Shown here piece by piece: positions 10,341 to 14,805 of a stretch of DNA of 64,000 nucleotides. The stretch spans positions 1,707,032 through 1,771,031 of the forward strand of contig MU004182.1 in NCBI GenBank assembly GCA_010093605.1, written 5' to 3'. Position numbers and translations under genes: made by a program. Position 1 is the stretch's first letter. Every line of letters begins with the position of its first letter. The DNA is from Lophium mytilinum (lineage: Eukaryota). A model generated the notes under the pieces. The model searched no databases and was not told the origin of the DNA. It worked only from the letters and a program-made list of their open reading frames with translations.

Positions 10341-11561
10341 ATGGCTTCCCCAACCTCGAAACCCACCGTCGCTATCCTGGGCGCTGGACCTGCAGGTCTT
10401 ACCCTCGCCTCCCTGCTCCGTGTGCAATCAATCCCTTACACTATTTTCGACCTCTCCTCCGCCATTTCCACCGCCGGCGGAACGCTCGACCTGCACCCCG
10501 CAGCCGGCCAAGCCGCCCTCCGCGCCGCAAACCTCTGGACGCCCTTCACCAAACACGCGCGGCCGGAGTCCGACGTCATGAAAATCGTCTCCCCCGCCGG
10601 CGTCGTCCTCTGGGACGAGAACAAAGGCGCTGCGGACGAGCAACCCGCCGCAGAAACCGAAGACGACCTCTTCGGCGGCCGCCCCGAGATTGACCGCAGT
10701 GCACTCCTCTCCATCCTACTCGAGGGCGCTGGAGGCGCCGACGCCGTCACCTGGAACAAGAAGCTACTCGAAGTCATCCCAGCCGCCAACGGCACGCACA
10801 CTCTGCGGTTCGCCGACGGCACGGTTTCCGAGTCGTTCGATCTAGTAGTCGGCGCCGACGGCGCCTGGTCCAAAGTCCGCAATATCTTGTCTGCGACCAA
10901 ACCACACTATTCAGGCATCTCATCCCTCGAACTATGGTCCCTCGACGTCGCGAACCGCAACCCTTGGCTTGCCGCCTACGCCGGCGCCGGCAACTGCTTC
11001 ACGTTCGACGCCGACTGCGCCATCCAAGCCCAACGCAACGGCGACGGCTCCGTCCGCACCTACGCCAGCCTGCGCGTCCCCGAGACCTTCTTCGCAGACT
11101 ACGGGGTCGATTTCACCGCGCCAGACGCCGCGAAACACGTTCCAGCGTACGTGGAGAAGTACTTCGGCAATGTCGGCGATGATCTAAAGAAGATGCTGCT
11201 GTCAAGCACCGACAAAGTTATCCCACGCACGCTCTATCACCTTCCTCCCGGTTTCTCCTGGGAGGGCAAGCCCGGCGTGACCTTGTTGGGGGATGCGGCG
11301 CATGTGATGACTCCGTTCGCTGGAGTGGGTGTCAATGCGGCGATGTTGGATGCGCTGGAGCTTTCGAAGGCGATAGTGGCAGCTGCGCAGGAGCCGGAGA
11401 AGGGGGGCTTGGTGGAAGCTATTCAGGGGTACGAAAAAGAGCTGTTTCCTAGAGGAGAAAAGTATGCACGGAAGACGCTAAAGAATTTGGATGGCCACTT
11501 CAGGAAAGGGGGGAGTGAGGATATTGCGGCGATGATGAGGATGGTACATGCGCCGCATTGA
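10341..11561 (+). CDS. FAD-dependent monooxygenase, TetX-like, intronless
   Basis: GAGPAG Rossmann motif, GGTLDLH...GQAAL, RPEIDR, DLVVGADGAWSKVR, LLGDAAHVMTPFAGVGVNAAMLDA. TATAAG box near 10149. Confidence 0.92.
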   Translation: MASPTSKPTVAILGAGPAGLTLASLLRVQSIPYTIFDLSSAISTAGGTLDLHPAAGQAALRAANLWTPFTKHARPESDVMKIVSPAGVVLWDENKGAADEQPAAETEDDLFGGRPEIDRSALLSILLEGAGGADAVTWNKKLLEVIPAANGTHTLRFADGTVSESFDLVVGADGAWSKVRNILSATKPHYSGISSLELWSLDVANRNPWLAAYAGAGNCFTFDADCAIQAQRNGDGSVRTYASLRVPETFFADYGVDFTAPDAAKHVPAYVEKYFGNVGDDLKKMLLSSTDKVIPRTLYHLPPGFSWEGKPGVTLLGDAAHVMTPFAGVGVNAAMLDALELSKAIVAAAQEPEKGGLVEAIQGYEKELFPRGEKYARKTLKNLDGHFRKGGSEDIAAMMRMVHAPH

Positions 11562-11766: not shown

Positions 11767-14700
11767 TCATGCTGCAACTAATGGCGTTGCCTCCTTGAAC
11801 ACAGTCTCAAGATCCTCCGCAGTCACCTCGTCCTCCAACCACATCCTCGCCTTTTCGACCACCAACTCCCACGTATCCTTCTCCGCCACAGCCTTCGTCT
11901 CCAAATACAACACCACCAGCGCCGTTGCGACTACCATAGCCGCACTAATCTCATCCTTGAAAGAACCCAACGTCGCGATCCTCACCAAAAGGTCACGTGC
12001 CTTCTCTCGATCAATGCCCATACCATCGCACTCCAAGTCCTCACGACCCCACGACCCATCGAATGCCTGCTTGTGGACCAATCGCTCCAGCAACGTCTCG
12101 CCGTGCACCTTACGCTTCTTAGCCGGCTGGGCGGCCGGGCTCTTCGACCTCTTCTTCACCGCTGCATCGGCAGCCGGCGCAGGAGGAGCGAGATCCTCGG
12201 TATCGAAGAAACCAAAGCCCATATCTTCGTCAGAATAGTCCACAAGATCTTCATCCTCACTCTCTTCCTCTTCTTCCTCATCCTCGTCCACTTCAGCCTC
12301 TACGTCTGGGAGGATCTTTCGATGACGCATAGCACCCCCTACAGCCAGGCCTCTACCTCCTCTTCCCCTGCCTCCAGATGGAGTAGGAGGCGGAGGTGCA
12401 AGCGAAGTAGAAGGCGCCGATTTCCGCGCGGCCTTGCTGGCGAGCTGCTTCCGGGGCGCCGCGCCGCCGGTGGACTTGCGCGCTGTTTGTTTGGTTCTTC
12501 TACTGCCCCTTACTTGTGCTGGCATTGCTGCTAACCCACGGTTAATATCGCGATCGCAATGGAGTGTAGCACTCGCAGTAGACTTACCATTATCAGAAGA
12601 CTCGGTATCCACCATTTCGAAGCCATCGTCGTCGTCTCCCGAGGCCTGGTTCCCGATCATTTCGAGTGCCTGTTGACGCTTTGCTGCGATCTCGGCCTCG
12701 TTGGCCTCGACGGCTACGAAGGAACAGTACTTCCCTCCGACCTGGAACTGGACTCCGAGGCGGACAGCTTCGCGCTGGACAATGGCGTCGAAATGTCCGG
12801 CGTACTCGTTTCGGACGAGTTTGCCGTCTTGGCTTTCGGCCTCATAGATCCATCCGCGGCCTTCTTCGAGCTCTTGGGTTGCTTTACGAGCAGCTAGCTG
12901 ATGGATGGTAGCACCAGGGGCTTCAAGTACTTGCACTGGTATTACCAGTTCGAGTGGTCCTTGCGGGGCAGTTCCACGTAGGATTACAGACGTGGGTGCT
13001 GCGTTCGAGGTTTCCGGCGACATCAACACGTAAACAGATGTGCGGTTGAAGGGGTAAAGCGGCGGAATGATGTGAGGCGTCTGCAGCAGCTTTGGGTGCG
13101 AGATCTTTGGCAAGTGGCCGAAGCGGTCCTCGGATACGACTTTGTTTTCCTCTTCGTCTTTTTCGGCTGCGTCTGCATCGTATAGAGAGATCGGCTTGTT
13201 GCGGAGTGCATATCTCTCCGAGGAGTCTTGATTGCTGTCATCGTCTGAGAAAGCGAGGTTGAGCTTGAGACTATCAGACACCCGGTCAACAGCGTCGTCT
13301 GGGTATTTGATATCCAGAGAGTAGTCCTTGATGTGTGGGGTGAGGGCTCCTTTCAGCATGCGAACAACCTTGCCATTGATTTGCTCTCCGAACCCAACCA
13401 TTTGTGCGAACCCGTTTCCAGCGCGGGCGATGCCTTCGATGAGTGAACTGGATACTCCACTTCCGATGCCGAGAGGAAAGAGTCGCACGGCCCCGTCCCT
13501 GGTGTTATCCTTGATGTAGTCGAACAATGTCTCTTGCGACCATATGTCGCCATCAGTGAGCAGCAAGATCTCTGTCTCGAGATCTTTAGTGCGAGTCTCA
13601 AAAGCTTCTTTGATTGCTGCAAAGGTCTCCGTGCCGCCAAAATCAGCAGAGAACTTGCCGACGTACTTCATGGCTTCGTCCAGGGCGTCTTGACTATATA
13701 GCTTGCTTTGAGGCCAAAGCAGCTCGTGATGTGAGCCGAAAGAGAGGATATTGAACCTTACGCCCACTGGGAGGGACTTCAGAAAAACCTGTAATGCAGA
13801 GATCAAAGTCTTCATGGAACTACCAGACATACTCCCGGACCTATCGGCAATGAAAACGATCTCGGGTTTGGATGGCTTGAGTGCGAACTTGGGTACCAGA
13901 CTGAGCATCAATGCGCGGTGGTTCGGGATGGATGAGTGGGTCTCCAAGAGGGCCTGTGGTGCTCCGACGTCTTTAGCGACTACCTGAAGGACGAAGTCGG
14001 CATCTAACTCTGTTTCTCCGAGAGCTAGAGTAGCCGAGGCCTTATTGGAGCTGAATAGTGCGTCACTAGGCGACGTTGACAAGGTGCCAAGAGATACAGC
14101 GATAGGGTGAGTTGGAGACTGAATCTTCTGAAGCGGAGCATCCTCGGACATTGTGATGTCGACTGTGATAGAGATCCCGCCCCCGGAAAGAGTAGATGCA
14201 GAAATAAGTTGACCAGGGTAATTTCCGTAGCGAGGGGCGATAGAGGTTGGCAGCGTGTAACGAATCCCATCAACCTCGGCGTCGTGCTTGAGCTCTCCGA
14301 TATACGTGATGGTCACCACGACCTGAGAGTCCCCCGGGATGTTACCAATCGTCGTAATGAACACGTCGGCAGCGTCAGGTAGTTGCTCCAAGAGCGCAGC
14401 CTTTTCTCCACGCTTCACCGCTTCGTTGTAAGCTTTCTTAGCTTCGTCCTTTTCCTTGACTAACCCATAGACGGTGCGGTCCCCGACCTGGCACTTGAAG
14501 TCCACTACACTGACGCCATCAAAGAGTGGAAAGGCGTATCTAAAGCTATTAGCAAGACTGACAATGTGTGAATAGGGATATCCTGCTTACTTGATTTCGT
14601 CAATCGGTCTCGCCGCTTCGAAGGTTTGCGTTAAAACAGTACTGAAAGCAGTAGATAAGATGGTCGTATGTGCATCTAGATGCGTCTGCGGAAGGTAGAC

Positions 14701-14805
14701 CCGCGTTGACCCTCCGGATGGCGTAGGTTGGAGAAAGTAGCAACTGCAAATGTGCCCGCCATAACGTAGCAAGCCACCACGAGGTGGTTCTTTAGTCCGG
14801 GCCAT
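11767..14805 (-). CDS. VIT + von Willebrand A domain protein (VWA5A/PARP4-C-like, about 995 aa) with a histone H3/H4-tail and P-stalk mimic linker
   Basis: Exon1 14805-14591, intron 14590-14540, exon2 14539-11767. VIT ([26 protein letters not shown]), vWA MIDAS ([16 protein letters not shown]), C-terminal helical domain ([29 protein letters not shown]). TATAAA near 14916-14921. Confidence 0.92.

Follow-up and report, generated by a model that had tools for sequence, protein, structure and literature searches.

Why should a fungal protein built around a VIT and a vWA domain carry, in a disordered loop, nearly whole copies of the tails of two histones, and why are the lysines of these copies replaced? 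The question is raised by a gene of Lophium mytilinum on the minus strand of a 64,000-nucleotide stretch of contig MU004182.1 (GenBank assembly GCA_010093605.1, positions 1,707,032 to 1,771,031 of the forward strand). We call this whole stretch the window and count all positions from its first letter. An initial annotation, made from the letters alone, had singled out a short segment of the gene as a mimic of the histone H4 tail that lacks the four acetylated lysines. The segment matches H4 far better than its composition would predict, it stands beside a copy of the H3 tail, and in relatives of the protein the lysine positions of both copies are replaced in a patterned way. Among the functions that could account for this pattern, we tentatively favour that of a decoy which cannot be modified.

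Copies of two histone tails inside an unrelated protein

Direct translation of bases 12304-12378 on the minus strand gives 25 residues, and the H4 copy stands at residues 776-798 of the spliced protein. Its phmmer alignment to a 34-residue H4 peptide in the PDB (5w0v_C) runs without gaps over 23 residues, of which 17 are identical. The six differences are K5R, K8R, G11A, K12V, K16M and R23P; R3 and the run R17-H18-R19-K20 are unchanged. Translation and phmmer therefore reproduce what the initial annotation had reported, namely an ungapped alignment to H4 residues 2-24 with 17 of 23 identities and replacements at K5, K8, K12 and K16, and its remark that R3 and RHRK20 are intact is borne out by the same alignment to 5w0v_C. 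The probability that six differences thrown at random over 23 positions would cover all four of these lysines is 0.0017.

The match is specific to H4. We searched all PDB chains by phmmer with the 27 residues encoded by 12304-12384 and obtained 61 distinct sequences at E<=10, the best at E=3.3e-5; among the best 60 of these 61, histone H4 and its peptides account for 59, and the remaining match is a GFP-SUMO fusion construct. The local BLOSUM62 score of the copy against an H4 tail is 90, a value that none of 20,000 composition-preserving shuffles reaches (mean 28.2, standard deviation 5.4, maximum 60). The half of the copy that is free of RG scores 51 by itself, above a shuffle maximum of 41. 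The doubt that the segment might score no better than generic RGG sequence is answered by 259 RGG-containing control windows from family members, whose 95th percentile against the H4 tail is 38. Shuffles and the non-RG half together show that composition alone, that is, an RGG/RG low-complexity box, fails to explain the likeness to H4. The H4 tail used as reference for these scores was sliced from P0096, a 709-residue database "protein" in which animal H3, H2A and H4 pieces follow one another head to tail. This entry is an evident assembly or gene-call artefact, and it came into our list of homologues through H3 words alone.

The copy is not itself a histone H4, because no fold domain follows it, the similarity in the phmmer alignment stops at H4 residue 24, and the region is modelled as disordered. 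Pfam applied to the query gives the VIT and vWA families and a weak match of the acidic Spt5_N family, with no histone-fold domain after the copy, and tblastn detected no real histone gene within the 64-kilobase window.

The adjoining H3 copy is clearer still in its E-value (3e-11 by phmmer against the PDB), and its best 60 matches are all H3 or H3 chimeras. Against a fungal-type H3 (8qyv_A) the single mismatch over residues 2-32 is K14>A, as the initial annotation had claimed; against an animal H3, tblastn aligns 31 residues with 28 identities. The two copies are thus confirmed, as far as sequence comparison goes, as mimics of histone tails that keep the register of the original inside an unrelated protein. 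The N-terminus of the protein, MARTK (14791-14805, minus strand), repeats in addition the first residues of histone H3 (ARTK after the Met). Eleven other members of the family begin with M-[AVTS]-R-T-[KNH], six of them with MARTKQ (P0053, P0076, P0095, P0117, P0127 and P0140). We read this start as a second H3 mimic on the same protein, one with a free N-terminus.

The modules are recurrent and patchy in the family

We assembled relatives in two ways. A word-seeded search with the C-terminal third of the protein as query identified 477 proteins at E<=1e-3, of which the best 120 were used. Nearly all of these 120 are VIT-vWA proteins, and the named ones come from Pleosporales and other Dothideomycetes, Hypocreales, Sordariales, Leotiomycetes, Eurotiomycetes and lichen-forming Lecanoromycetes. 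The list, which includes the query itself (P0001, the long-open-reading-frame translation), has an H3-like stretch in 56 of 120 proteins and an H4-like stretch in 42 of 120. These frequencies overstate the prevalence of the modules because the candidates were chosen by five-residue words shared with the copy-containing region. The unbiased sample came from a full scan with the whole protein (14,780 matches at E<=1e-3, with 1849 family members at E<=1e-30), of which we took the 150 best representatives of clusters at 50% identity. Among these representatives, 15 are H3-like, 6 are H4-like, 20 match a regular expression for a third module that resembles the end of the ribosomal P-stalk proteins (33 of 121 relatives in a further count), and 36 have any of the three.

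Pooling both samples gives 261 family proteins, with an H4-like copy in 45 (28 distinct) and an H3-like copy in 68 (62 distinct). Where modules co-occur, H3 precedes H4 in 19 of 23 cases and the P-stalk-like end is always the last before the C-terminal domain; the full set of H3, H4 and P-stalk-like modules, as in the query, is found in 5 of the 261. We placed these data on a quick FastTree phylogeny of the folded bodies, which covers 86 proteins out of the 90 with modules (four were left out for their short bodies). The presence of the H4 module requires at least 13 changes on this tree. Judged from these samples, the modules are real, recurrent and patchy in the family. In a group of Alternaria proteins (P0008-P0017 and P0026), the second half of the H3 copy together with a basic stretch (RKSAPS...KKP...KRK) is either present or absent, which could reflect a real indel polymorphism or a difference between gene models.

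Lysines are replaced position by position in a conserved context

Replacement of lysines in the H4 copies follows the position (counts are of distinct copies in which that position is aligned). At position 16 there are 12 Met, 6 Phe, 5 Leu, 1 Trp, 1 Ile and 2 Lys, so that the residue is hydrophobic in 25 of 27 copies. Position 12 is mixed (Q 8, V 7, K 6, R 4, other 3), position 8 is mostly basic (R 12, K 10, other 5), and lysine is retained at position 5 in 2 of 14 copies. Position 20 has K in 14, R in 10 and M in 1, hence K or R in 24 of 25. The surrounding residues are kept: G13 in 28/28, R17 in 27/27, R19 in 26/27, G9 in 26/28 and G7 in 24/26. Expressed as column conservation, the values are 100% for R17 and G13, 96% for R19, 56% for K20, 37% for K8, 21% for K12, 14% for K5 and 7% for K16, and the lysine columns fall below the others (Mann-Whitney p 0.0007).

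The tabulation over homologues at K5, K8, K12, K16 and K20 that the initial annotation had proposed, here run on the 28 distinct copies, shows lysines that are neither retained wholesale nor varying at random. Its view of the changes as nonrandom is supported, since the surroundings are conserved and the residue that replaces a lysine depends on the position. Its description of the segment as lacking all four acetyl-lysines is right for the query but does not extend to the family as a rule: only 6 of the 13 distinct copies with all four positions aligned are without lysine at 5, 8, 12 and 16, and 13 of 26 are without lysine at 8, 12 and 16. The rule to which the alignment points is instead that position 16 is hydrophobic while the basic patch and position 20 are retained. 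A hydrophobic position 16 is found in 40 of 43 rows and needs a single change on the body tree, which suggests an old, fixed feature of the H4 module. In Alternaria and its relatives, the core G-x-G-L-G-x-G-G-A-[ML]-R-H-R-K forms an invariant island in a loop rich in indels. In the query and in the family alike, a hydrophobic residue thus stands in for a substrate lysine amid conserved surroundings, the hallmark of the lysine-to-methionine (K-to-M) type.

The H3 copies show a comparable pattern. Over the 62 distinct rows, lysine columns are conserved at 27% (K4), 47% (K9), 57% (K14), 71% (K18), 80% (K23) and 81% (K27), against 91% for R8, 96% for S10, 97% for P16, 98% for R17, Q19 and A24, and 96% for P30 (lysine columns lower than the others, Mann-Whitney p 0.0015). 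Met is the leading replacement at K9 (7), K14 (8), K18 (8) and K23 (6); a hydrophobic residue is rare at K27, with 1 in 58 distinct rows. Altogether, Met accounts for 30 of the 125 lysine replacements in the H3 copies. The folded parts of the same proteins, at 33 columns with a lysine consensus, give 18 Met and 270 Arg among 784 replacements. The enrichment of Met in the H3 copies relative to the folded parts has a Fisher p of 5e-16, a value that ignores relatedness. On the tree, separate changes between Met and other residues number at least 4 at K9, at least 5 at K14, at least 7 at K18 and at least 3 at K23.

The copies lie in a predicted loop between two folded parts of a VIT-vWA protein

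The host gene has three exons (Table 1). Joined, they make 2931 bases, that is, 976 codons and a stop with no internal stop codon, and an in-frame stop lies 18 bases upstream of the ATG at 14805. Intron 1 was predicted from the sequence; X1, the single public run that contains this DNA and is presumed to be of RNA, agrees with it and reveals intron 2. On the minus strand, a 3731-base contig of X1 extends from 11708 past 15000 and leaves out both introns. Each omitted stretch has GT..AG ends on that strand, and the frame stays open across the two tail copies; a pair of clean, intron-shaped gaps of this kind is expected of a spliced transcript. Intron 2 is invisible to a plain reading of open reading frames, being read through in frame, and lies 32 bases upstream of the H3 copy. 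It leaves the H4 copy unaffected, and the residue numbers given in P0001 precede its splicing. An artefact of gene prediction, in which a histone gene would have been merged with its neighbour, was considered and rejected: the copy is inside exon 3 of one contig-supported transcript, and the same stretch occurs in relatives from many assemblies.

The body of the protein is well defined. Pfam identifies VIT (PF08487, E 2e-18) and VWA_3 (PF13768, E 8.2e-31) in the query. The AlphaFold2 model, made from a 67-sequence alignment, has a mean predicted local distance difference test (pLDDT) score of 77.9 and a predicted template modelling (pTM) score of 0.74, and its confident regions are P0001 residues 1-616 (pLDDT mostly >85) and 802-912. 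In the same alignment, D221, S223, S225 and D318 of the metal ion-dependent adhesion site (MIDAS) are invariant and T292 is at least 90% conserved. The top Foldseek match of the body is the inter-alpha-inhibitor heavy chain ITIH1 (6fpy_B, E 6.4e-22, 644 columns).

The C-terminal domain, modelled alone by AlphaFold2, reaches a pLDDT of 93.2 and a pTM of 0.87. Foldseek returned nothing for it at E<=0.001, with a top match (E 0.54) to PARP4 in the vault complex 9bw6_B. Comparison by VIA-align gave Z 7.0 with PARP4 residues 1570-1706 in that structure and Z 12.1 with the C-terminus of an axonemal protein of Trypanosoma brucei (9e5c_4t), whose sister chain 9e5c_4s matches the whole model. Helix matches to a thioester domain and a terpene cyclase (Z 4.5-6.5) were set aside, as they are in the range expected for helical bundles. 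Pfam found no PARP catalytic or BRCT family in the query. Given the ITIH1-like body, the PARP4-like C-terminal domain and the Pfam results, the host is best classed, by sequence and model, as a fungal protein of the ITIH/PARP4/VWA5A kind that lacks a PARP domain.

Between these two confidently folded parts, pLDDT falls below 50 and no secondary structure is modelled (P0001 617-774, 776-782 and 784-801). The loop is predicted to be exposed. It comprises, in order, the H3 copy, a proline spacer, the H4 copy, a P-stalk-like acidic run and the basic cluster KKRKV, by its appearance a putative classical nuclear localisation signal. The end of the acidic run has nine PDB matches at E<=10, of which eight are ribosomal P1/P2 proteins with weak E-values (0.15-1.2); seven of the eight are aligned up to their last residue. 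In two relatives, P0003 and P0234, the match to Pfam PF00428 (E 2e-5 and 9e-5) stays under the gathering score.

Loops of other members carry fragments of different hub proteins, as seen in a Pfam census of 60 of the 150 representatives (13 + 47) complemented by blastp. They include a synaptobrevin SNARE motif in P0111, P0123 and P0146 (Pfam E 2e-7 to 4e-6) and in P0160 (blastp), the C-terminal tail of AGC kinases with its hydrophobic motif in P0054 (PF00433, E 1e-5) and P0030 (blastp), an NF-YA fragment in the loop of P0158 (PF02045, E 3e-6), an RA domain in P0082 (Pfam) and P0108 (blastp), and nucleoporin-type FG repeats in 8 of the 60 relatives scanned. The histone mimic of the initial annotation is real, but it is one module of a multi-mimic loop in a VIT-vWA protein.

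Table 1. Features of the VIT-vWA gene in the window (ORF, open reading frame).
Feature	Position	Strand	Evidence
Whole coding region, 976-amino-acid VIT-vWA protein, three exons	11767..14805	minus	ORF, translation, X1 contig
Exon 1	14591..14805	minus	sequence prediction and exon joining
Intron 1, 51 bases, GTAAGC...TTTAG	14540..14590	minus	predicted; skipped exactly by X1 contig (CT..AC on plus strand)
Exon 2: rest of VIT, vWA, middle beta/alpha domain, start of loop	12588..14539	minus	Pfam, AlphaFold2, Foldseek
vWA domain with complete MIDAS motif (D221-x-S223-x-S225, T292, D318, P0001 numbering)	13402..13863	minus	Pfam, alignment
Predicted disordered loop, about 185 residues unspliced, about 166 spliced	12103..12657	minus	AlphaFold2
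Intron 2, 57 bases, in frame, GTAAGT...GTTAG	12531..12587	minus	skipped by X1 contig; splice letters checked
Exon 3: mimic modules and C-terminal domain	11767..12530	minus	X1 contig, exon joining
H3-tail copy, H3 residues 2-33, K14A	12403..12498	minus	PDB phmmer, tblastn
Proline-rich spacer LAPPPPTP	12379..12402	minus	translation
H4-tail copy, equivalent to H4 residues 1-24	12304..12378	minus	PDB phmmer, shuffles, tblastn, spliced-frame check
Acidic run; its end, 12202-12231, resembles the P1/P2 C-terminal tail	12202..12303	minus	translation
Basic cluster KKRKV, just before the C-terminal domain	12106..12120	minus	translation
C-terminal helical domain, about 110 residues, Q-x-F-x-G-x-W ... WELVVEKA	11770..12102	minus	conserved in family; AlphaFold2
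Stop codon	11767-11769	minus	ORF reading

The gene converges with a neighbour on the plus strand (10341-11561), which encodes a 406-amino-acid protein that looks from its sequence (GAGPAG start) like a putative flavin adenine dinucleotide-dependent monooxygenase. A second X1 contig terminates at 11694, and 14 bases separate this end from that of the VIT-vWA contig.

A possible decoy for proteins that bind histone tails

Our preferred explanation, to which we give a probability of roughly 0.45, is that the H4 copy is a selected short linear motif which cannot be acetylated and which serves as a decoy, or pseudo-substrate, to H4-tail-binding proteins. Such a decoy would be frozen in one charge state and would display H4 residues 7-21, with the basic patch R17-H18-R19 and with K20, to proteins directed at this tail. 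Candidate partners are the MYST acetyltransferases and the sirtuins, which act at K16, as well as Dot1, the ISWI remodellers and the K20 methyltransferase Set9/KMT5. At position 16, the hydrophobic side chain may occupy the pocket made for lysine or acetyl-lysine without turnover, so that the partner would be held, or competed away from real nucleosomes. K-to-M histones and the protein EZHIP hold SET-domain enzymes in this way. The H3 copy, together with the Met found in relatives at K9, K14, K18 and K23, might do likewise for enzymes directed at H3. For the core around position 16 we also considered the PP1 RVxF motif, the cyclin RxL motif and the PY-type import signal, none of which fits well.

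The charge of the copy can be read in two ways. The initial annotation had called the mimic constitutively unacetylated, which suits the arginines at 5 and 8, since they keep the charge, but V12 and M16 are neutral and therefore resemble the charge-neutralised state at least as much as the unacetylated one. To acetyl-lysine readers, or to Dot1, which is stimulated by acetylation of K16, these two residues could equally look like the acetylated state.

Several points weigh against the decoy. The comparison of K16M with K-to-M histones, already drawn in the initial annotation, holds in that a hydrophobic residue at 16 is a family-wide trait, but it is an imperfect analogy: H4K16 is an acetylation site and is not known as a target of SET-domain methylation, so the precedent does not transfer directly. 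The retention of K20 and R3 means that the stretch could be a true substrate and not a dead end. One protein would have to outcompete nucleosomes, which are very abundant, and each functional step of the decoy is one that we infer from sequence. The Met counts come from sequences that share ancestry, for which the correction relies on a quick FastTree reconstruction. The module is moreover patchy, with 6 of 150 proteins H4-like and 15 of 150 H3-like in the unbiased sample. P0002, the closest relative that we found (73% overall identity), retains the H3 copy and is without the H4 copy; this loss indicates that the H4 module is dispensable.

A wider form of the decoy would take in the whole loop, as an array of frozen tails of hub proteins (H3, H4, P-stalk, SNARE and the hydrophobic motif of kinases) with their reactive lysines changed to Met and similar residues. 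These would be traps in the K-to-M style that arose independently of EZHIP, and they would serve either to buffer chromatin enzymes of the fungus itself or to absorb foreign factors directed at these hubs, as a decoy arm of fungal cell-autonomous defence. We regard this extension as doubtful.

The strongest rival makes the loop a bait, or tripwire, of a surveillance protein. The loop would show copies of host tails, a protease, toxin or modifying enzyme from a bacterium, virus or mycoparasite would strike it, and the VIT-vWA body with the C-terminal domain would report or neutralise the attack. The bait region of alpha-2-macroglobulin, the NLRP1 tripwire and the integrated decoys of plant NLRs are parallels, and the loop is likewise held between two folded parts. 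The fragments of quite different hub proteins in the loops of different members, and a patchy turnover with at least 13 changes in H4 presence, suit a conflict system better than a fixed regulation. Yet a tripwire must be acted on, and the change of Lys to Met or Arg makes a poorer substrate; the near-fixed order of the modules looks like the decay of one old arrangement rather than free shuffling; and the Pfam results for the query and for 60 scanned relatives include no domain for cell death, pore formation or signalling. We know of no antagonist that targets fungal histone tails, and on balance we consider the bait unlikely. Modification by the cell's own enzymes is the theme of another alternative, quite unlikely in our judgement, in which the copies are true substrates or docking handles: histone enzymes would modify K20, the RG arginines and H3 K4, K9 and K27, and readers would then be recruited to the VIT-vWA protein, or the protein to chromatin complexes. 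The automethylation motifs of G9a and SETDB1 and the proteins with H3 N-terminal mimicry are precedents. Conservation of K20 (K or R in 24 of 25 distinct copies) and of R3 agrees with it, as do the query H3 copy, which keeps K4, K9, K18, K23 and K27 with only K14 changed, the K27 of the relatives, whose ARKSAP context is among the best-kept parts of the H3 copies, and the changes K5R and K8R, which add RG sites. The H3-like free N-terminus also fits, since a free N-terminus of the H3 type is needed by many H3 readers according to a published account (PMC8166343). The sites that are most modified on real tails are, however, the least conserved columns here; the replacements (Met, Phe and Leu) are neither random nor conservative; and the P-stalk-like, SNARE-like and kinase-tail-like modules of the relatives would be left unexplained.

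The tail copies could also simply carry the VIT-vWA protein into the nucleus, as the tails of H3 and H4 serve as import signals for histone-specific importins. The copies span just the tail parts and lie beside KKRKV, but with that cluster already present, 55 more residues would be redundant. Structures of Kap123 reportedly show importin pockets filled by H3 K14 and K23 and by H4 K16, and these contact lysines are among those replaced in the query and its relatives. Nuclear import leaves the enrichment of Met unexplained as well, and we hold it to be improbable. That the segment has no specific function, being RG-rich low-complexity sequence or the decaying relic of a captured histone sequence, seems very improbable. 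Its first ten residues are indeed RG-rich, the nearest relative is without the H4 module, and many relatives are degenerate (e.g., GGHFRARKI in one Alternaria group). Against this stand the shuffles, none of which reaches the score of the copy, the non-RG half, which likewise exceeds all of its shuffles, the core that is invariant among Alternaria relatives while its flanks vary, and the recurrence of the same core with a hydrophobic 16 in members from Dothideomycetes, Sordariomycetes and Lecanoromycetes.

Comparison with known systems

The literature searched, whose coverage leaves out subscription journals, gave no description of tail copies in VIT-vWA proteins. To our knowledge, natural inhibition of the K-to-M kind comes from a single mammalian protein, EZHIP. 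Here, a fungal family carries nearly complete copies of two histone tails with a patterned replacement of lysines that was repeated many times in evolution. If the copies bind tail-directed enzymes, they would provide ready-made inhibitor peptides for the fungal chromatin enzymes of secondary metabolism and development, they would make trapping by Lys-to-Met an old natural strategy and not just an accident of cancer, and the unstudied fungal relatives of PARP4, VWA5A and ITIH would gain a function. The P-stalk, SNARE and kinase-tail fragments in the loops would make the idea that fungi build decoys of their own hub proteins directly testable, and a loop that is an array of frozen hub-protein tails would be a new kind of system.

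The architecture of the host is familiar. Like ITIH1, PARP4 and VWA5A, it has a VIT followed by a vWA domain with MIDAS, on an ITIH1-like body. Like PARP4, it ends in a helical domain, of moderate likeness to residues 1570-1706 of that protein, and the T. brucei axonemal protein resembles both the body and the C-terminal domain. Unlike PARP4, it has no PARP catalytic or BRCT domain detectable by Pfam, and unlike the secreted ITIH proteins its start, judged by eye, does not resemble a signal peptide.

Mimicry of the H4 basic patch is presumably rare: the AutoN motif of ISWI is one mimic reportedly described with this patch. More generally, described mimics include influenza NS1, SARS-CoV-2 ORF8, the H4 motif of Twist, the automethylation sites of G9a and SETDB1, and the proteins with H3 N-terminal mimicry (PMC13165374, PMC8166343, PMC6028506 and 10.1101/2025.01.21.634156). 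The copies described here are, like these viral and cellular mimics, linear motifs in a non-histone protein that imitate a histone tail. They differ in extent, since the known mimics span 4 to about 10 residues and usually keep the lysine, whereas here nearly whole tails of two histones stand in tandem with lysines replaced. This tandem, the family-wide replacement of lysines and the P-stalk-like companion are what is unusual about the system.

The closest parallel is EZHIP (CXorf67), a non-histone protein that inhibits Polycomb repressive complex 2 (PRC2) "through a H3 K27M-like mechanism", in the words of its report (10.1101/585729). Like EZHIP, the VIT-vWA protein is a non-histone protein with a peptide resembling a histone tail and with Met at the position of the substrate lysine. 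EZHIP imitates about a dozen residues around H3K27, and the query copies about 24 residues of H4 and 32 of H3. The former belongs to placental mammals and acts on the SET-domain enzyme of PRC2; the latter is a fungal VIT-vWA protein with a hydrophobic residue at H4K16, for which inhibition is something that we infer. Finally, the position mimicked by EZHIP is K27, while the relatives of the query have the hydrophobic residue in their H3 copies at K9, K14, K18 and K23, and rarely at K27.

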